Of a stretch of DNA of 64,000 nucleotides, positions 9,353-17,665 are shown piece after piece. The notes under the pieces are model-generated. The model was not told the origin of the DNA, made no database searches, and saw only the letters and a list, made by a program, of their open reading frames with translations. Location of the stretch: the IMG/VR virus record IMGVR_UViG_3300025580_000012, positions 7,475 through 71,474 of that record. One strand, 5' to 3'. The DNA comes from a virus (Duplodnaviria; Caudoviricetes). Positions within the stretch are counted from its first letter, which is position 1. Every line of letters starts with the position of its first letter. Both the position numbers and the translations under genes were made by a program.

Positions 9353-9669
9353 ATGCGAAGCGCTCGAAGGCACCCCCCGCACGGCCGGACCCGACTACTC
9401 CGCCTGCGCCCACACCGGTTGATCCCGCTGCAAGAGCGGCCGCAAGGGCCAACAAGCTCGATCGGCTAGTCGCCGCCGCCAATCGGGTCCAGCGGGCCAA
9501 GCAGGAGTTGCTGTTCGCGGAGACGGAACTGCTCGGGTTGGCCGGCGAGGACGTGGTGCTGGCGGCCATCATGTCGGTCGCGTGGCATCACCCGGACGGT
9601 AGCAAGATCGAGGTTTCAGCGAAGGAGGAACCGGGGGAGGGTCGGTTCGAGATCCCGGTACCGAAATGA
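9349..9669 (+). CDS. Hypothetical protein
   Basis: ATGA overlaps at both ends. Confidence 0.6.
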   Translation: MNAKRSKAPPARPDPTTPPAPTPVDPAARAAARANKLDRLVAAANRVQRAKQELLFAETELLGLAGEDVVLAAIMSVAWHHPDGSKIEVSAKEEPGEGRFEIPVPK

Positions 9670-10784
9670 GGATCCTCGCGTTCGCCGACTTCCACTACTG
9701 CCAGACCTGGCCCCTCCTCGAACTCGCCGACTTCGAGCGGGTCGGCTATCGCCTCTGCCAGTACGCCATCGAGCACCGCCCGGACGTCGTCCTGTTCCTG
9801 GGCGACCGCTTTCGCGCCCGGCAGCCCAAGGATCACATCCGCGCCCTTGCCGACCGTCAGCTCCGCGAGATGGCCGACATCCAGCGGCGGCACAGCGGCC
9901 AGCTCGTCTGCCTGGTCGGCAACCACGACCGCTACTCCGAGTCGGTCGACGCGGGCAACACGTACACGACCGTCGGGATCTTCCGCGACGTCCTCCCGAA
10001 CGTGCAGGTCATCGACAAGCCCGGCAGCTACCCGTTCAGCCAGACGCGTGACCCGTGGGTCCTGCATGCGCTGCCCGCCGGCTTCCAGTACGACGCCAGC
10101 AAGTTCTTGGTGGAGCCGGGTCGAGGGTTCAACGTGTTCGCGTTCCACGGGCTCGTACGGGGCGGCTGCTTCGATGCCAAGGGGTTGGTCGAGATCGACG
10201 AGGGGGTCGTGTCGCTCGCCGACCTCGACGACCCCCGCTGGGACGTGGTGCTCGGCGGTGATGTCCACATCCCCCAGAAGTTCCGATTGACCCGGACGAC
10301 CGGCGGCTACGTGGGCGCGACCATGCGGCTCACCGAGGCAGACGCGGATGACTGGCGCGGCTTCCTCGACGTCAAGCTCCACAACGCTCACGGCACCTCG
10401 ATCGAGGTCACGCGCGTGGAGGGGGGTGGTCCCTGGTTCGCGACCGTTCCGCTCACGACTAACCCAAACGAGTGGCCCGACCCCGCCAAGTACGTGGGTT
10501 CGATCGTCATCGCGACGATCAAGGGGCGGGCCGTCGAGTTGCGCGGCATCCCAGATGCACGCGTCCGCCTCCACTTCGAGGGGGCGAGGAAGGTCCGGGT
10601 CCACCGCCGCTTCGACCACGAGGTCCCCGCTTTCATCCCGACGATCACGGCCTCCTCCACTCCCATCGACGACGCCGTCTCCTACATCCGGAGCACGTCG
10701 AGCGGGTTCGACGAGGCCCGCCTGGTCGCCAAGGCCCACACGGCCCTCGGCGCCGAACCGGTCAGCAAGGGAGGGCTGTTCTGA
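9666..10784 (+). CDS. sbcD: SbcD/Mre11 (gp47-like) metallophosphoesterase nuclease
   Basis: ADFH, FLGDRF, VGNHD, FAFHG, GGDVH motifs; YVGA. Confidence 0.9.
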   Translation: MRILAFADFHYCQTWPLLELADFERVGYRLCQYAIEHRPDVVLFLGDRFRARQPKDHIRALADRQLREMADIQRRHSGQLVCLVGNHDRYSESVDAGNTYTTVGIFRDVLPNVQVIDKPGSYPFSQTRDPWVLHALPAGFQYDASKFLVEPGRGFNVFAFHGLVRGGCFDAKGLVEIDEGVVSLADLDDPRWDVVLGGDVHIPQKFRLTRTTGGYVGATMRLTEADADDWRGFLDVKLHNAHGTSIEVTRVEGGGPWFATVPLTTNPNEWPDPAKYVGSIVIATIKGRAVELRGIPDARVRLHFEGARKVRVHRRFDHEVPAFIPTITASSTPIDDAVSYIRSTSSGFDEARLVAKAHTALGAEPVSKGGLF

Positions 10785-11655: not shown

Positions 11656-12407
11656 GTACGATCGTACTGTTCGGTGTGAAGGGGTCCGGCAAGGACACGG
11701 TCGGCGACATCCTGGTCGCGAACCACGGGTACGCAAAGGACTCGTTTGCCGCCCCCATCAAGCAGATGGTGCGGATCGCGTTTCCGAAGTTGACCGACGA
11801 AGACCTCTTCGGGCCGAGCGAGAAACGGGAGCGCCAGGAGCCTAGCTATCCGATAGGAGGCGTGTGCCTGAGCTGCGGCATGGGGATGGGGGCATTGCGG
11901 CGGCCCGACGGTGTAGAACCTATAGGGGGACACTACCCTTGGGCGTGTACTCGACTCCTAAACGACGGCACTTACTGTCCAACCGAGTACCCTCCTTATC
12001 TCAACGCCCGTATTGCTCTCCAGACCCTTGGAACTGAGTGGGGCCGGAGGCTCTACCGGAACGTCTGGGTCGATAGCGCGTTCGAGCGGATCGCGGACCG
12101 GGCGTACGCCTACGAGGTCGCCCAGATCGATCCGTTTCCGACCCTCGCCCCGCCTGTCGTCATCACGGACGGTCGGTTCCGGAACGAGTTGTGGCGGTCC
12201 AAGGAGCTGGGGGCGTTCTGCGTGAAGCTGACGCGCGGGCTCGCCGAGTCGACCTCGATGCACCCGAGCGAACAGGAGTTCCGCGAGATCCCCGACAGCG
12301 CGTTCGACAGCATCCTCGACAATGCCAACATCCCGCTCGACCGGATGGACGAAGCGGTCAGCCGGATGCTGGCCTACATGAACGCCGGCCCCCACGTGCA
12401 GGAATGA
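11652..12407 (+). CDS. Deoxynucleoside monophosphate kinase
   Basis: GVKGSGKDT, SFAAPIK, RIALQTLGTEWGR, VVITDGRFRNE, HPSE. Confidence 0.92.
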   Translation: MSTIVLFGVKGSGKDTVGDILVANHGYAKDSFAAPIKQMVRIAFPKLTDEDLFGPSEKRERQEPSYPIGGVCLSCGMGMGALRRPDGVEPIGGHYPWACTRLLNDGTYCPTEYPPYLNARIALQTLGTEWGRRLYRNVWVDSAFERIADRAYAYEVAQIDPFPTLAPPVVITDGRFRNELWRSKELGAFCVKLTRGLAESTSMHPSEQEFREIPDSAFDSILDNANIPLDRMDEAVSRMLAYMNAGPHVQE

Positions 12408-14515
12408 GGCTCCTGCGCGTCAACCCGACCGGCTTCTTCGCGTACGGCGAGCACGACTACATCACGCTCGCCGGCCAGGGGATCGTCCTGCTCCAGGGGC
12501 CGGTGGGGGCGGGGAAGTCGAGCCTGTTTGACACGATCTGCGAAGTCCTGTTCGGTACGTCGCCCAAGCGGGACGGCGCCGCTGATGTGACGGAGAACGA
12601 CGTCGTCAACAAGACGCTCGGCAAGGCGTTCGGGGTCGTCGAGTTCGAGCAGGCCGCCTACCACTACCGGGTCGCCTACCTCCGCAACTGGGATGGCCCC
12701 GGCCTCCTGGTAGGTCCGTCCGCCCAGGAGGCGGCCGGCGGGTATGCGGGGACGACCGTCTACTTCGAGTGGTGGAACGGGACGGAGTGGATCCAGAAGG
12801 GTCCGGACAGCCGGGACCTCCGGATGGCTCGCATGTCCGACACGTGGCGGCGAGTCGTCGAGGTGGCGGGCGTCGACTACGGGACGTTCTGCAACGCCTG
12901 CTACGTCGCCCAGGACCAGGCCCTCGCCTTCATCCGCGGGAAGGACTCGGACCGCGAGGAGATCCTCACCCGGCTCATGCGACTCGACTGCTACGACGAT
13001 GCCGAGACGCGTGCCAAGGAGCAGGCCGCCATCCTCCGCCAGCAGGCCGCCACTATCCAATCGGCCATCGCGACCCTCTCGATCCAGGAGAACGGGATCG
13101 TCATCGGCGACATCGAGGCTGCTCGCGCGAGGGTCAAGGGGGCGGCCGACCAGATCGAGACGATCGACGCTTTGATCCGGGACCACGACCGCCAGATCGA
13201 GGCGGTCCGCACCGTCGCCGATGCCCACATGGCGGCTGCTGGGCAAGCGAACGAGCAGGTCACCGCCATCATCCAGCGCATCCACGCCAAGACCCTGGAG
13301 GTCCAGACCCTCCAGTCCGAGATGCAACGAGCTAAGGATCTGGCTCGCACGAGGATCGCCGCCCTCCCCACCACCACCCCGGAGTTGGATCGACTCCGCC
13401 AGGCCCTCGCCAACGCAAACGCGTTGGCCGCTTCCGAGAACCTCCGGCTGACCGGCATGCTGCCGGGCGCGGGCAAGTGCCCATCATGCGGGAGCGTCCT
13501 GGATGACAAGACGCTCGCGCGCCACAAGGACGAACAGGCCGACCTCGTCCGGGCGGCGCTCGGGGGTGTGGACGTTGCCGAGCGGATGGTTGCCGGCGAG
13601 TTGGCCATCATCGAGCAGACCCGCGTCGACCAGACGGCCCGCATCCAGGCCGAGGTCGCCGCCACCGTCGAGGGGACGGAGGCGGCCATCAAGCAGATCA
13701 TGACCGACGTGCTCGGCTTGGAGGCCGAGAAGGCCAACCTGACCGCCACCGCCCAGCACCACCAGAAGGAGGCGGGCAACAGTCAGGCGGCGGGCCTGAC
13801 GGCGGCACGCAACAAGATGGTCGAGGACCGCCGCCGCTGGGAGACCGAGCAGGCCGACGCGAAGGCGGCTGTCACGCTCTACGAGTCCCGCCAGGCCGAC
13901 CGCGATCGGATCGCCGCCCAACGGGTCGACCGCGAACACCAGCTCGCTCAGGTCAACCTGGACGGCCAGGAGTGGGGGTGGCTGGCCAAGCACTTCCCGC
14001 GCATCAAGCAGATGAAGTTCGCGACGGGTTCCACGTTCCTGAACGACGCGCTCGCCCGCCACCTCGACTGCCTGACGGGTGGGTCGACCCGGGTGGTCAT
14101 CAACCCGTTCCGCCTCAAGAAAGAGGCGGTCAAGAAGAAGGCGGCCGACCTGACTGCCGACGACTACATCTTCAAGTTCGAGATGGCCGTCGAGGAGGCA
14201 CGCAAGACGGGGGTGCCGATCCGCCTGTACTCGGGGGGTGAGAAGGAGCGGATCGTCCTCGCTCTCATCTGCTCGTTCTGGGAGTTGGCGGCCAGCCAGG
14301 GGTCCGGTACCAACCTCCTCTTGCTCGACGAGGCCGCCACCTACATGGACGAGCGGTCGATCGAGGGGGTCGTGCGGTTCTGCGAGCGCATCCGGGAAAC
14401 GGTTGACACAGTCGTGCTAGTCGGGCATGACCAGGCTCTATCGTCGCTCCTGACCGCCGACGCCGTCTGGACGGCTACCAAGAGGGACGACGACACGACC
14501 GTCATCGAGGGGTAG
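12404..14515 (+). CDS. sbcC: SbcC/Rad50 (gp46-like) ABC ATPase
   Basis: Walker A GPVGAGKSS; long coiled coil with Zn hook CPSC; signature YSGGEKERI; Walker B LLLLDE; H-loop VGH. Confidence 0.93.
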   Translation: MRLLRVNPTGFFAYGEHDYITLAGQGIVLLQGPVGAGKSSLFDTICEVLFGTSPKRDGAADVTENDVVNKTLGKAFGVVEFEQAAYHYRVAYLRNWDGPGLLVGPSAQEAAGGYAGTTVYFEWWNGTEWIQKGPDSRDLRMARMSDTWRRVVEVAGVDYGTFCNACYVAQDQALAFIRGKDSDREEILTRLMRLDCYDDAETRAKEQAAILRQQAATIQSAIATLSIQENGIVIGDIEAARARVKGAADQIETIDALIRDHDRQIEAVRTVADAHMAAAGQANEQVTAIIQRIHAKTLEVQTLQSEMQRAKDLARTRIAALPTTTPELDRLRQALANANALAASENLRLTGMLPGAGKCPSCGSVLDDKTLARHKDEQADLVRAALGGVDVAERMVAGELAIIEQTRVDQTARIQAEVAATVEGTEAAIKQIMTDVLGLEAEKANLTATAQHHQKEAGNSQAAGLTAARNKMVEDRRRWETEQADAKAAVTLYESRQADRDRIAAQRVDREHQLAQVNLDGQEWGWLAKHFPRIKQMKFATGSTFLNDALARHLDCLTGGSTRVVINPFRLKKEAVKKKAADLTADDYIFKFEMAVEEARKTGVPIRLYSGGEKERIVLALICSFWELAASQGSGTNLLLLDEAATYMDERSIEGVVRFCERIRETVDTVVLVGHDQALSSLLTADAVWTATKRDDDTTVIEG

Positions 14516-14518
14516 CGC

Positions 14519-14797
14519 ATGAAGATCCAACCCGTTCGCGTCGCCTTCCTGGACCCGGCGACCAAGAAGCCGACCGGCCTCGACCTCTTTGGTGACGCCA
14601 AGGCCATCCAGCAGCGGTACGGCCGGTCCGTACACGCCAAGGCGGTCGACCAGGCGCTCGACATCTACGAGGCTCAGATGAAGAAGGGGGTCGTCTACTA
14701 CGACACCAGGCGGGTCAACCCGCCCGTCATCCTGCACGACCGGGCCGCCCTCCTCCAGACGTTCTACCGGGACGGGCAGATCGGGCGGCCGGCGTGA
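14519..14797 (+). CDS. Hypothetical protein
   Basis: GC3-rich ORF between sbcC and the resolvase. Confidence 0.6.
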   Translation: MKIQPVRVAFLDPATKKPTGLDLFGDAKAIQQRYGRSVHAKAVDQALDIYEAQMKKGVVYYDTRRVNPPVILHDRAALLQTFYRDGQIGRPA

Positions 14798-15351
14798 AGG
14801 ACCCCAAGCGGGTGGCGGCCGGCAAGCGGTCCAAGCGGAAGGGCAACTCGAACGAGCGGGAGGTCGCCAAGATGCTGGCGGCCTGGTGGGGGTCGGGCGA
14901 GTGGATGCGGACCCCTTCGTCCGGGGGGTGGGGGCGGTCCAAGCAAGTCCGAGACGACTTCAACGCGGCCGGCGACATCGTCACCACCGCAACCGATTTC
15001 CCCTTCTGCGTCGAGGTCAAGAGCGAAGAGGGTTGGGAACTCGAACAACTGCTGAGGAGCCCAGAAAAATGTCCGATCGCGAAGTGGTGGAAGCAGGCGG
15101 TGGACGAGACGCCGGAGGGGAAGCACCCGCTCCTCCTGTTCACCAGGAAGATGCGGCCGTGGTTCGTGATGGCGATCCCGCCCCTGTACCCGATTCTGAC
15201 GGAGCCGACGTGGCAGGTGTGGGTGCCGCAGACGGGACGGGTGTGCCTGACGTTGGCGTCCAGCCTGATGGCGATCCCGAAGGCCACCATCATGATGGCG
15301 TGGGGGATGCCGTCGATGCCGACGATTCCGATGAGGACGGGGATGCCGTAG
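14794..15351 (+). CDS. Holliday junction resolvase, Hjc-like PD-(D/E)xK
   Basis: SKRKGNSNEREVAK, AGDI, FCVEVK, PLLLF pattern. Confidence 0.8.
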   Translation: MKDPKRVAAGKRSKRKGNSNEREVAKMLAAWWGSGEWMRTPSSGGWGRSKQVRDDFNAAGDIVTTATDFPFCVEVKSEEGWELEQLLRSPEKCPIAKWWKQAVDETPEGKHPLLLFTRKMRPWFVMAIPPLYPILTEPTWQVWVPQTGRVCLTLASSLMAIPKATIMMAWGMPSMPTIPMRTGMP

Positions 15352-16652
15352 CTGAGCGGGACTGGGGGGCCGACCTCGAACTGGTCGACTGCTGGGCGCG
15401 CCCGAAGGCCACCCCACACGCCCTGACGGTCAAGATCGCGAAGGACGTGCTGGACGACCGGTTCGCTGCCTACTACTGGGCCAACCGCGCCATCATGTAC
15501 AACGCCATCCTCCAGGCGGCCAACGGGGTGGGCGACATCTCGGCCAAGCAGCGCAACGCCGCCGTCCAGACGATCCGGAAGTTCCGCAAGGGCAAGCTGC
15601 CGGCCAGTGCGGTCGAGATGGTGCTGGGCGGCAAGCTCCACGTCTACGAGGACGTCATCAACTCGCTGCTCAAGCGGCTGGTCGTCGAGCGCAACGGGCG
15701 CGACGCCCTCTACTTCTTCGACGTCGACCTCAAGGAGGCGGCCGCCACCGACGAGACGGCCGCCCACTACATCCTGTCGGCCGGCTACTTCCTGTACCCC
15801 GAGGTCTACGGGGTTGCCGACGACTTCGACGTCAAGGTGATCGAGCCGACCGTCGTGACCCGCACGCCCGCCGAGCTGGAGGCGTTCGTCGACGAGCGGC
15901 TCAAGGTGCTCATTCGCGTTCCGGCGCTCGGCGCCAAGAAGGACGGACCCGTCGAGCCGGGCGATGCCGTGATGGTCGCGAGCCTGACGGCTGTTCGGGG
16001 TGGGCGGAGGTGGGAGCAGGGCTGCGCCCGCAACCTCACCCTCTACACGACCATGACGGAGCCGTCTCCCGACGACATCATTCCGAGGCCGAACGTGGGG
16101 GCCTGGCCGGCCAGCACGCAGTACGCCGACCAGCTCATCGGCGCGTCCGCGAAGGACCGGAAGGTCTTGACGGTCGAGATCGATGGGGTCAAGACCGACC
16201 TCCACATCCACATCGACACCGTCCACGCCGCCGTCCTCTCCGATCCCGATTCCATCGCCAAGCGGTACGGCTACCCGAACGTCAAGGTGTGGCGTGACCG
16301 CCTCCTCCGGATGGCCGAGGCGAACGAGGAGCGGATCGAGCGCGATGCGATCAAGCGCAGCATCGTCGACGCGATGGCCAAGTACGACGTGACGTTCGAG
16401 CCCTTCCCCGACTACTGGGCCGTCCGTCACATCGAGAAGCTGCGGGCGAGCGGGTTCCAGGGGAGCGACCCCCACCTCGCCAACGAGGTGCTCCGCGTCT
16501 TCCACGAGACCGTCTTGCTCCGCGAGTACGCCCGGAGGATCGGAGTCGCCCCCGAACCCGACGCCGTCATCAACTGGGCCCTCCAGAACCTCAAGATCGA
16601 GAGGGTCACGACCGAGTCGAACAAGGCGCTTGCCGAGGAGGAATCGAAGTGA
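15300..16652 (+). CDS. tig: Trigger factor homologue (ribosome-binding N domain, degenerate FKBP-like domain, C domain)
   Basis: LTVKIAKDVLDDRF; signature-like KFRKGKLP at 15579-15602; VYEDVINSLL; GPVEPGDAV; DQLIGASA; IAKRYG; IKRSIVDAM. Domain order matches trigger factor. Start uncertain (GTG at 15300 chosen). Confidence 0.72.
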   Translation: MGDAVDADDSDEDGDAVAERDWGADLELVDCWARPKATPHALTVKIAKDVLDDRFAAYYWANRAIMYNAILQAANGVGDISAKQRNAAVQTIRKFRKGKLPASAVEMVLGGKLHVYEDVINSLLKRLVVERNGRDALYFFDVDLKEAAATDETAAHYILSAGYFLYPEVYGVADDFDVKVIEPTVVTRTPAELEAFVDERLKVLIRVPALGAKKDGPVEPGDAVMVASLTAVRGGRRWEQGCARNLTLYTTMTEPSPDDIIPRPNVGAWPASTQYADQLIGASAKDRKVLTVEIDGVKTDLHIHIDTVHAAVLSDPDSIAKRYGYPNVKVWRDRLLRMAEANEERIERDAIKRSIVDAMAKYDVTFEPFPDYWAVRHIEKLRASGFQGSDPHLANEVLRVFHETVLLREYARRIGVAPEPDAVINWALQNLKIERVTTESNKALAEEESK

Positions 16653-16930
16653 AGATCAAGCCGCTGTACGACCGCGTTCTTGTCGCCAGGCGGGCCCCTG
16701 ACGAGAAGGTGGGGAGCCTGTTCATCCCGCCGTCGGCGACCAACAAGTCCCAGCAGGCCGTCGTGATGGCGGTTGGGCCTGGCCACATGCGAGGGGAGGA
16801 GCGTGTCCCCCTCACCGTCAAGGTCGGGGACGTCGTGGTGCTCGGCGACTACACCGGCGTCGATGTCGCGCTCGACGGCGAGAAGTTTGTCATGATCCGC
16901 GAGGCCGACATCCTCTGCATCGTGGAGTGA
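16649..16930 (+). CDS. groES: Co-chaperonin GroES
   Basis: KIKPLYDRVLV, LFIP, VMAVGPG, VKVGDVV, DGEKFVMIREADIL. Confidence 0.96.
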   Translation: MKIKPLYDRVLVARRAPDEKVGSLFIPPSATNKSQQAVVMAVGPGHMRGEERVPLTVKVGDVVVLGDYTGVDVALDGEKFVMIREADILCIVE

Positions 16931-16933
16931 TGG

Positions 16934-17665
16934 GTGGGGATGGTCGCTTCGGCTGCACGGCTCTGCCGGACGGAAGGGTGTAGCAACCCCCCGTCCGGCA
17001 AGAACCACGCGTACTGTCGGGCATGCCGACGGGCCCGCCGTACCCAGGAGTTCGCGGCCCGCTGCCTGACGCCCGGTTGCGGCGCCCGCTTCATCATGCG
17101 GGCCACCTCGCTGGTCGCCCTCAAGAACAAGCCGGACAAGTTCTGCCCGACCTGCCGGGACAAGTTCGGGGGCCGTCTCCGCGCCCTCCAGCTTCAGGCG
17201 GAGCGCAACGACGACATCACATCCATCATCATCCAGGCGGGCCGGGAGGCATTCGACTGGTCGTCGAACGCGGAGGGCCGGGACGTGCTCGCCCGCTTCG
17301 AGGCGGCCCTGGGGGTCACGTACCACACGCTGCACGACTGGCTCGCCTTCTTCTTCGGGATGACGTGGCCGGACTGGAAGCGGAAGTACGTGTGCGCGGC
17401 GCATGCGTGTTCGATCGTGGACGTCTCGACGATCACACGTGGTGGGCGGCCCAAGTATTACGTGGTCGACAAGTTCCGGACGAAGGGGATCTGCTCGTGC
17501 CCGATCCGCGGCGACGCCCTCATCCTTGTCGATCGACCCCGCGGCGAGCTGACCGCTGATGCACTGGCCGACCGGTTCCCGAAGTCGACCCGCTGGACCA
17601 AGCAGCTCGTCGTCATCGACGGCTCCCACCTTGACCGGCTCGCTGACCAGGAGGACGACACATGA
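16934..17665 (+). CDS. Hypothetical protein with N-terminal Cys-rich zinc fingers
   Basis: CRTEGC..YCRAC, CLTPGC..FCPTC. Confidence 0.65.
   Translation: MGMVASAARLCRTEGCSNPPSGKNHAYCRACRRARRTQEFAARCLTPGCGARFIMRATSLVALKNKPDKFCPTCRDKFGGRLRALQLQAERNDDITSIIIQAGREAFDWSSNAEGRDVLARFEAALGVTYHTLHDWLAFFFGMTWPDWKRKYVCAAHACSIVDVSTITRGGRPKYYVVDKFRTKGICSCPIRGDALILVDRPRGELTADALADRFPKSTRWTKQLVVIDGSHLDRLADQEDDT

Follow-up and report, generated by a model that had tools for sequence, protein, structure and literature searches.

A very divergent trigger factor homologue encoded beside recombination nucleases in an uncultured large wetland phage

The window analysed here, a 64,000-nucleotide stretch of an IMG/VR record, derives from an uncultured large wetland phage. 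It carries genes for a DNA polymerase, a large terminase (TerL) and a tail protein, and the contig is that of a phage. Open reading frames of 2530, 1553, 1033 and 1022 aa are also present, and no tRNAs were found in the 64-kb window. The subject of this study is the plus-strand open frame ending at position 16652, whose product, P0001, is numbered from the GTG at 15300. Around it lie SbcC-like, PDDEXK_15, GroES and phage genes (Table 1), and the cellular tig-clpP-clpX context was not encountered.

Table 1. Features at the trigger factor (TF) locus, in window coordinates.
Feature	Position	Strand	Evidence and remarks
PDDEXK_15 endonuclease gene (RusA-like resolvase PHROG), upstream	14794..15351	+	Pfam PF24608 6.5e-31; phrog_244 1.1e-23
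Candidate TF start: GAGGAG (15054-15059), 9-nt spacer, ATG 15069	15054..15071	+	Inside PDDEXK gene, -1 frame
Putative acidic N-terminal extension, 104 aa	15069..15380	+	Gly/Pro/Ala/Val-rich; exists only if ATG 15069 is used
TF N-terminal ('tail') domain and linker	15381..15869	+	P0001 residues 28-190; Pfam Trigger_N, hhalign, VIA
Helical insertion, ~22 extra residues before docking loop	15483..15572	+	About P0001 residues 62-91; hhalign gap
Ribosome-docking signature K94-F-R-K-G-K-L-P101 (canonical GFRxGxxP)	15579..15602	+	hhalign to E. coli G43-P50
FKBP-like 'head' domain, degenerate pocket	15912..16244	+	Residues 205-315; VIA, hhalign
14-aa insertion in FKBP domain	16062..16103	+	Alignments; pLDDT 61-66
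Helical C-terminal domain and TGA stop	16245..16652	+	Residues 316-450; VIA
GroES co-chaperonin gene	16649..16930	+	Pfam Cpn10 5e-25, NCBIfam GroES, phrog_3188

The open frame ending at 16652 encodes a real, very divergent TF homologue carried by a phage. P0001 scores 24.5 bits against Pfam Trigger_N (PF05697; gathering cut-off 22.2, E 3.7e-5), and the same model matches 8 of the 15 members of the P0001 family, with a best E of 8e-14. TIGR00115 of NCBIfam aligns with residues 91-361 (E 3.4e-7); because its score of 29.4 bits lies far below the tig equivalog cut-off of 180.2 bits, P0001 is, as judged by this profile, a homologue and not the orthologous housekeeping tig. When a profile of the 15-member family was compared with the PDB, the top 16 matches were all TFs (best E 8.7e-25, covering TF residues 27-359), and hhalign paired the protein with E. 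coli Tig at a probability of 98.8% (E 8e-17) over 302 columns that begin at residue 12 and reach E. coli residue 330. The AF2 model of P0001 has a pLDDT of 84.6, and in a Foldseek search of the PDB with this model all of the top 8 matches were TFs (E 1.4e-16 to 4e-9). Structural alignment of the model with full-length TFs by VIA gave Z scores of 11.9, 11.7 and 11.4 over 337-347 residues, with a predicted N-FKBP-C order that is conserved. First among the structural matches is 3gty, a TF-substrate assembly complex, and the neighbours of P0001 in the ESM Atlas are exclusively TF clusters. The initial annotation had read a full N/FKBP/C layout from the letters of the sequence and had proposed a search for structural counterparts of the TF N and C domains; sequence profiles, profile-profile comparison and fold comparison all bear out the layout, and the counterparts were found at the hhalign, Foldseek and VIA values given above.

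At the N-terminal end, VIA pairs model residue 28/29 with TF residue 1, and model strands 28-34 and 40-47 align from TF residue 1 onwards, in agreement with the N-domain strand described previously. The insertion said to precede the signature is likewise present, as about 22 extra residues (roughly P0001 63-91) that form a gap opposite E. coli Tig in the hhalign alignment and that the AF2 model predicts to lie in two helices (63-74 and 82-94). It is shared by 11 of the 15 family members, so that the segment before the signature measures 34-37 residues in these and 13-16 in the four that are without it (P0013-P0016). The signature itself, first noticed as KFRKGKLP, lines up without gaps with E. 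coli G43-F-R-K-G-K-V-P50; of the seven residues running from F to P it shares six, Leu standing for V49, and the first Gly (G43) is replaced by Lys. The motif is intact in 9 of the 15 family members and degraded in the other six (P0004, P0005, P0007, P0010, P0012 and P0015), and the phage population contains a K99R variant within it, at 15595. From this homology we infer that P0001 may dock on ribosomes, and its choice of clients is proposed on the same grounds.

The middle of the protein had been described as a degenerate FKBP-like region, and both parts of that description hold. Model residues 214-314 superpose on SlyD/FKBP structures in VIA (predicted Z 8-8.9, rmsd 1.7-1.9 Å, 77 residues), the family profile matches the E. 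coli TF PPIase domain 1l1p with an E of 8.8e-6, and a Pfam FKBP_C search of P0001 returned no match. Mapping of the pocket by hhalign gave F168 to L, F177 to W, E178 unchanged, F185 to L, I195 to A, F198 to Y, deletion of the Y221 loop and F233 to L. A competent PPIase pocket was not recognized, 5 of the 8 E. coli pocket positions appearing changed or deleted by profile alignment. For comparison, the substitution F198A abolishes the PPIase activity of TF (PMC7804408). The 14-aa insertion in this domain is limited to the window phage and its 99% twin. Beyond the head, the predicted helical C domain also stands: residues 316-450 are helical and align structurally with the TF C domain, the VIA alignments to 3gty and 1w26 extending to model residues 439-440, which correspond to TF residues 414-423. 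A Pfam Trigger_C search found no match in P0001 and matched 1 of the 15 family members.

The end of the gene at 16652 agrees with the initial annotation; its start at 15300 probably lies too far downstream. GTG 15300 is simply the first canonical start met in frame on going upstream from strand 1, and ATG 15069 is the better candidate. We consider it the probable start because the GAGGAG located 9 nt upstream is conserved: SD and ATG persist in four lineages (the window, L002, L006 and L013), even where PDDEXK residues change, and they are made of rare codons (AAA, 3.1% of Lys codons; AGG, 8.1% of Arg codons). At L014 no SD was found, and the TF gene there starts at the PDDEXK stop. With the upstream start, the 3' 283 nt of the PDDEXK gene overlap the TF frame, and the probable overprinted start within the nuclease gene would be a case of compact dual coding that selection on rare codons maintains. 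Two other accounts of this region were weighed. The frames are compatible with a fusion of PDDEXK and TF by -1 frameshifting, but no slippery heptamer was seen by eye near 15300-15351, and the fusion was dropped in favour of the conserved internal SD and ATG. The peptide 'MSDREVV' could instead be a mere off-frame shadow of the PDDEXK 'KC.IAKWW' motif; that accounts for the resemblance among the peptides, yet it leaves unexplained why SD and ATG survive when amino acids change.

Use of ATG 15069 would yield a 527-aa protein with a strongly acidic extension (pI 4.05; 30 D+E against 4 K+R), within which GTG 15300 falls and whose modelled part has a pLDDT below 50. P0005, P0007, P0008, P0010 and P0011 likewise carry acidic extensions, 26-100 aa long. 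GC3 is 0.87-0.97 in the PDDEXK frame up to its stop at 15349-15351; since the GC3 of the overlap thus follows the PDDEXK frame, there may be little constraint on the long acidic tail, which may not even be made if translation starts elsewhere.

On the downstream side, the GTG start of GroES overlaps the TF stop by 4 nt (GTGA), with GAGGAGG 7 nt upstream. GroES directly follows TF only in the window phage and is missing at that position in every relative examined. Its best bacterial matches are ~54% identical and carry mixed names (Acidobacteriota, Desulfobacterota, Bacteroidales). GroEL and DnaK were not found in the 71-kb record, which is about 41% complete, nor was Cpn10 in a related 52.5-kb viral record, itself a fragment. 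A fold search with the downstream 243-aa protein gave no convincing match (best Z 4.7).

The P0001 family is tiny, with 13 representatives among 1.84 billion proteins and no close cellular relative found among the 1.84 billion representatives. Five loci are long enough for their context to be judged. TF adjoins a module of SbcC/SbcD, PDDEXK, Thy1 or RNase T in every one of them and is part of a phage replication/recombination block, the GC content ranging from 41 to 68%; at the P0014 locus the gene upstream of TF is SbcC, not PDDEXK. TF is the fastest-evolving gene of the block, at 29-30% identity versus 43-67% for its neighbours. Contigs from four other wetland runs span 14700-17000 with zero indels, and the sequence is therefore not an assembly artefact. 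Moreover, 5 of the 7 population SNPs in the TF-only part fall at third codon positions. None of the sequencing runs listed as carrying the sequence is an RNA run. Because of the phage hallmark genes, the shared synteny, the third-position bias and the lack of indels, we conclude that the TF homologue is a phage gene under selection.

Relatives in catalogued phages are scarce. Megablast and tblastn searches of GenBank phages with the P0001 gene returned nothing, PHROGs held no match for P0001, and the BFVD viral structure library held none at E<=0.001; a search of viral contigs with an alignment of close relatives recovered one, that of the L003 phage. Our literature search found no paper describing a phage-encoded TF, and one virome study explicitly found none, so that the earlier remark that TF is rarely reported in phages agrees with both the literature and the databases. 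Canonical tig matches do occur in GenBank 'phage' records (33-35); the one examined is a bacterial chromosome with the tig-clpP-clpX order, and the remainder are probably contamination.

TF uses its N domain to attach to the ribosome next to the exit tunnel (PMC7804408). The best explanation of the present data, and in our view a moderately probable one, is that P0001 is a diverged, phage-lineage TF acting as a ribosome-docking, ATP-independent holdase for nascent phage polypeptides. According to this model, the protein would be expressed from the replication/recombination operon and translated, probably from the internal SD and ATG 15069, with a disordered acidic N-terminal tail. The retained loop FRKGKLP would then dock it on the host 50S subunit, next to the exit tunnel (uL23/uL29), during infection, where nascent phage polypeptides could be held in the cradle by an ATP-independent holdase rather than an isomerase. 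The polypeptides would subsequently be handed on and, in the window phage, the translationally coupled GroES could work with host GroEL. Plausible clients would be the phage's many very large multidomain proteins. Several observations count against this explanation: the first Gly of the motif is Lys, and the ~22 extra residues abut the loop at the would-be ribosome interface; 6 of the 15 members have a degraded motif; the score lies far below the tig equivalog cut-off; the gene evolves fastest in its block and lies in a DNA-metabolism operon, not among the virion genes; and the GC3 of the overlap follows the PDDEXK frame.

Some of the same observations would fit a ribosome-independent, dedicated chaperone or assembly factor whose TF cradle holds one or a few phage proteins after translation (e.g. 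the co-translated PDDEXK nuclease, SbcCD or a virion protein), in a manner resembling the TF paralogues PceT/RdhT or the T. maritima TF that holds ribosomal protein S7. We regard this as unlikely, if credible. The tight linkage to PDDEXK, all four of the junctions examined showing start/stop overlap, speaks for it, as do the six degraded motifs, the insertion abutting the motif, the fast evolution relative to neighbours and the identity of 3gty, the top structural match, as a TF-substrate assembly complex. However, the docking motif, which is among the most conserved segments of cellular TFs, is intact in most members, P0001 included, and the coupling to PDDEXK is not specific, because the whole operon is built of overlapping genes and the P0014 locus has SbcC upstream.

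Alternatively, P0001 could be a factor of host takeover that occupies the uL23 site and excludes host TF, SRP or other exit-site factors, thereby redirecting or crippling host protein biogenesis. Retention of the docking loop while the PPIase pocket was rewritten, the possible acidic tail and extra helical hairpin at the interface, and the location in an operon of early/middle replication type would be consistent with such a role; yet conservation extends to the whole cradle, with its C-domain arms and the fold of the head, more than a simple blocker would require, and the coupled GroES points to folding, so that we hold takeover to be very unlikely. The weakest alternative, an artefact of host tig contamination, chimeric assembly or a decaying pseudogene, draws on the mislabelled bacterial DNA among the canonical tig matches in 'phage' records and is effectively refuted, since the family is unrelated to those matches (no tblastn match), counts no close relative of cellular origin among 1.84 billion representatives, keeps its phage synteny in 5/5 judgeable loci and is intact and free of indels in four other runs, its SNPs being biased to third positions.

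A holdase docked on host ribosomes, the reading that we prefer, would mean that phages intervene right at the onset of protein folding. GroES/GroEL-type helpers are known from phages; we found no paper describing a virus-encoded ribosome-exit chaperone. If docking is true, P0001 could also serve as a naturally occurring, strongly diverged TF with which to ask what features (docking loop, head, arms) are truly required. The PPIase domain of TF is dispensable for chaperone function in vivo, and the rewritten pocket of P0001 would support the view that the holdase role matters and not the isomerase activity. A bolder version, which we think distinctly unlikely, is that a large-phage lineage has long kept a private exit-tunnel factor that remodels the host exit site, excluding host TF and SRP and favouring co-translational folding of giant polyproteins, with an overprinted start, an acidic tail that tunes docking or mimics nucleic acid, and an extra hairpin at the interface.

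Among known systems, P0001 shares domain order and folds with bacterial Tig (1w26/2vrh of E. coli, 3gty/3gu0 of T. maritima and 1t11 of V. cholerae). Both have a linker and a helical C body, and the docking loop FRKGKxP aligns with E. coli F44-P50. Identity is 14-18%, the C domain of P0001 is shorter, an acidic N-terminal tail has probably been added, and the gene lies beside phage nucleases, whereas bacterial tig commonly lies beside clpP-clpX. Phage co-chaperonins (GroES homologues, phrog_3188), of which T4 gp31 is one, provide a precedent for phage-supplied folding helpers, and the gene that follows here is a true GroES; however, they belong to another family with another mechanism, GroES capping GroEL and TF working at the ribosome without ATP. 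The chloroplast TIG1 (7zgi; Z 9.6 over model residues 167-440) is likewise a diverged TF outside bacteria, although it is organellar and descends from cyanobacterial tig, whereas P0001 is viral. PceT and RdhT are not known to have the N-terminal ribosome-binding domain, unlike P0001, which keeps both the N domain and the signature. These proteins of organohalide-respiring bacteria are TF-like dedicated chaperones (Morita 2009, Maillard 2011, as cited in PMC8905343); by their description they resemble P0001 in being diverged paralogues of TF that lie away from the housekeeping tig locus, beside a presumed client operon. The 'Hodor' conjugative megaplasmids also carry TF genes, for which the authors propose chaperoning of the element's giant proteins (PMC12934698). 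These plasmids and the window phage, again likened by description, are mobile elements that have their own TF and encode giant proteins; Hodor elements are plasmids of gut Firmicutes with TF beside Sec genes and a sortase, whereas P0001 belongs to a phage lineage and is a far more divergent TF.

Independent sequence, profile and fold comparisons identify the TF-like protein of the window as a homologue of trigger factor (TF), an assignment that we regard as close to certain. The 450-aa protein obtained when the frame is read from GTG 15300 (P0001, whose residue numbers are used here) matched Pfam Trigger_N at 24.5 bits (gathering cut-off 22.2; E 3.7e-5) and the curated tig model TIGR00115 over residues 91–361 (E 3.4e-7, with a score far under the equivalog cut-off of 180 bits). 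A phmmer search of 1.84 billion cluster representatives returned only 13 relatives, at 19–64% identity, and no cellular TF. When a family profile built from 15 sequences was compared with solved structures, TFs were recovered and nothing else of note, the best match being T. maritima TF (E 8.7e-25, TF residues 27–359); the E. coli and V. cholerae proteins matched at 4e-20 and 9e-18. Alignment with E. coli TF (Tig) by hhalign gave a probability of 98.8% (E 8e-17, 302 columns, Tig residues 12–330). The AF2 model of P0001 (mean pLDDT 84.6) was used for a Foldseek search of the PDB, in which the top eight matches were all TFs (E 1.4e-16 to 3.7e-9), and VIA-align superposed it on TFs with Z-scores of 11.9, 11.7 and 11.4 over 337–347 residues, pairing model residues 28–440 with TF 1–423 in identical domain order. 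The global rmsd was high, as expected because the domains are flexibly linked. Feature neighbours in the ESM Atlas were TF clusters without exception. Thus, the initial annotation, which had proposed a phage TF homologue and suggested profile and Foldseek comparison with Tig as a check, was borne out by Pfam and TIGR00115, by profile and by fold.

The domain anatomy was examined by mapping P0001 residues onto E. coli Tig with hhalign, the numbering being checked separately. Model strands 28–34 and 40–47 correspond to TF strands 1 and 2, and the docking signature K94-FRKGKLP-101 pairs with E. coli G43-FRKGKVP-50. Helix 1 and the signature are separated by 34–37 residues in 11 family members, whereas the spacing is only 13–16 residues in the remaining four (P0013–P0016), as in canonical TFs; the AF2 model folds these additional residues into a helical hairpin. 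The FKBP head alone superposes on SlyD/FKBP structures with Z 8–8.9 (rmsd 1.7–1.9 Å over 77 residues), and the profile alignment maps its pocket as F168→L, F177→W, E178=E, F185→L, I195→A, F198→Y, Y221 deleted and F233→L. In E. coli TF, F198A by itself abolishes PPIase activity (PMC7804408). The head keeps the fold but, judged from these residues, probably not the isomerase site. It also contains a 14-aa insertion (residues 255–268), modelled with low confidence and peculiar to the window phage. The C domain is helical and shorter than its E. coli counterpart; its structural alignment with TF runs through to the TF end, though Pfam Trigger_C found no match in P0001. The signature, the insertion ahead of it, the degenerate FKBP-like middle and the helical C domain had all been read correctly from the sequence at the outset.

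The source record, of which the window is most, is a 71.5-kb IMG/VR virus (GC 66–70%; ~41% complete by CheckV). The window carries phage genes for a family-A-type DNA polymerase, a large terminase and a tail protein, and its + strand ORFs include ones of 2530, 1553, 1033 and 1022 aa.

Features of the TF-like locus (window coordinates unless a related locus is named)
Feature	Position	Strand	Remarks
SbcC-like ATPase	12191–14515		upstream of TF-like gene; phrog_77, 3.6e-43
Upstream PDDEXK_15 gene, stop	TAG 15349–15351	+	overlaps TF-like frame
TF-like gene	15069–16652 (favoured) or 15300–16652 (initial annotation)	+	527 aa or 450 aa
Candidate start	ATG 15069	+	GAGGAG ending 9 nt upstream
Candidate start	GTG 15210	+	GGAG at −9
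Candidate start	GTG 15300	+	no Shine-Dalgarno sequence
GroES gene	16649–16930	+	Cpn10 5e-25; GTG start overlaps TF stop (GTGA)
CxxC protein, 243 aa	16934–17665; L002:11220–11948; L013:6659–7606; L006:9846–10439; L014:2441–3010		

The initial annotation fared less well on the translation start. The TF-like frame is open from far upstream and contains no ATG, GTG or TTG between the PDDEXK_15 stop and strand 1, which is conserved even in the related locus L002, where it precedes the annotated ATG; the start codon must consequently lie within the PDDEXK gene, in the −1 frame. The site at 15069, both ATG and Shine-Dalgarno sequence, is common to four lineages (the window, L002, L006 and L013) and is retained despite changes in the PDDEXK protein, with GGAG still present in L006 (Arg-Ser to Thr-Glu) and the ATG in L013 (Lys to Thr). 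For this reason we lean, by no wide measure, towards 15069 rather than the previously chosen 15300. The codons that form the site are rare in the window (AAA, 3.1% of Lys codons; AGG, 8.1% of Arg codons). The Shine-Dalgarno sequence is missing in L014, where a GTG overlaps the PDDEXK stop instead, and L007 uses a different internal ATG. The putative 104 extra N-terminal residues would be acidic (pI 4.05) and rich in G, P, A and V, a composition that results when a GC3-rich gene is read out of frame; GC3 tracks the PDDEXK frame (0.93–0.97) to 15351 and the TF frame (0.93–0.96) straight after. Acidic tails of 26–100 aa do occur in five relatives, one of them a phage of 49% GC, and the tail may therefore exceed a by-product. 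The Pfam match of the PDDEXK protein does not take in its C-terminal tail (residues 127–185, encoded at 15171–15351), which is little conserved among relatives; even so, GC3 in the PDDEXK frame is 0.95 here, where the TF frame overlaps it. By its sequence this stretch appears to be dual-coding, and neither product looks strongly constrained.

Five TF-like loci were of sufficient length to be judged; all of them are phage-like and syntenic, sharing the order SbcD/SbcC-like, small ORF, PDDEXK_15, TF-like and conserved CxxC protein (~190–315 aa), with Thy1, RNase T, ParB or RecA nearby. Since this synteny spans loci of 41% to 68% GC, the TF-like gene has long belonged to this phage lineage and was not captured recently from a host. 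The true SbcC start is probably downstream of the listed GTG, because the latter overlaps the preceding ORF. A 372-aa ORF (9666–10784) equals in size, and resembles in position, the Metallophos (SbcD-like) gene of L002. Only in the window phage does a GroES gene lie directly 3′ of the TF-like gene; no gene occupies that place in relatives. The GroES gene has a strong Shine-Dalgarno sequence and completes a two-gene chaperone cassette. By eye, its mobile-loop region retains a hydrophobic tripeptide; the nearest bacterial GroES is only ~54% identical. GroEL and DnaK were not found in the partial record. The gene for the CxxC-pair protein overlaps the TF stop by 11 nt in relatives. The protein is 51–78% identical across the lineage, far better conserved than the TF-like protein; it had no Pfam or PHROG match, and a fold search (AF2, pLDDT 73.6) gave nothing convincing (best Z 4.7; weak HTH-like/ferredoxin-like resemblances).

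The TF-like gene is the fastest-evolving of its block, with 30% identity between the window and L013 (SbcC 43%, CxxC protein 54%) and 29% between the window and L014 (PDDEXK core 67%). It is under purifying selection. Contigs from four other wetland runs carry the 2.3-kb stretch with no indel, and five of the seven SNPs in its TF-only part fall at third codon positions; of the remaining two, one gives K99R in the signature. This change (A>G at 15595, FRKGK to FRKGR) is present in two of the four runs (X3 and X6) and in P0002, a 99% twin of P0001.

No relative of the family was found in GenBank phage records, P0001 did not match phrog_26774 in the PHROGs search, and its model had no match in the BFVD library of viral structures. 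Although labelled 'unknown function', phrog_26774 is itself a canonical full-length TF family (E. coli Tig 2e-121 over 1–430). The one canonical tig match that was inspected among those in GenBank phage records, in CAKLQH020000005.1 ('Acinetobacter phage MD-2021a', 220 kb), was rejected as a phage gene: with tig-clpP-clpX, leuA and a TonB receptor, the contig is bacterial chromosomal DNA filed as phage. The literature searched held no report of a phage TF, and the authors of a virome study in the Southern Ocean state that they detected no TF analogue (PMC8407431), which fits the earlier remark that TF is rarely reported in phages.

Beyond the homology, domain architecture, motif retention, selection and GroES coupling demonstrated for the gene, we consider it reasonably probable that the protein is a holdase at the exit tunnel. 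By analogy, it would dock beside the tunnel of the host 50S via the FRKGKLP loop, its cradle of tail, arms and head would shield nascent phage chains, and its activity would be that of an ATP-independent holdase, not of an isomerase. We draw this mechanism from established knowledge of bacterial TF, including the FRK mutant and the dispensability of PPIase activity. The domain roles of the bacterial protein are summarised in PMC7804408. An unlikely alternative is a ribosome-independent chaperone dedicated to one phage protein; degradation of the docking motif in 6 of the 15 family members, placement of the insertion at the interface and tight linkage to PDDEXK would all suit it. A blocker of the exit site serving host takeover is improbable, and an artefact can be given hardly any credence. 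For a holdase at the exit tunnel, the obvious clients would be the very large multidomain proteins of the phage, and the same large-client logic has been proposed for plasmid-borne TF by the authors of a megaplasmid study (PMC12934698).
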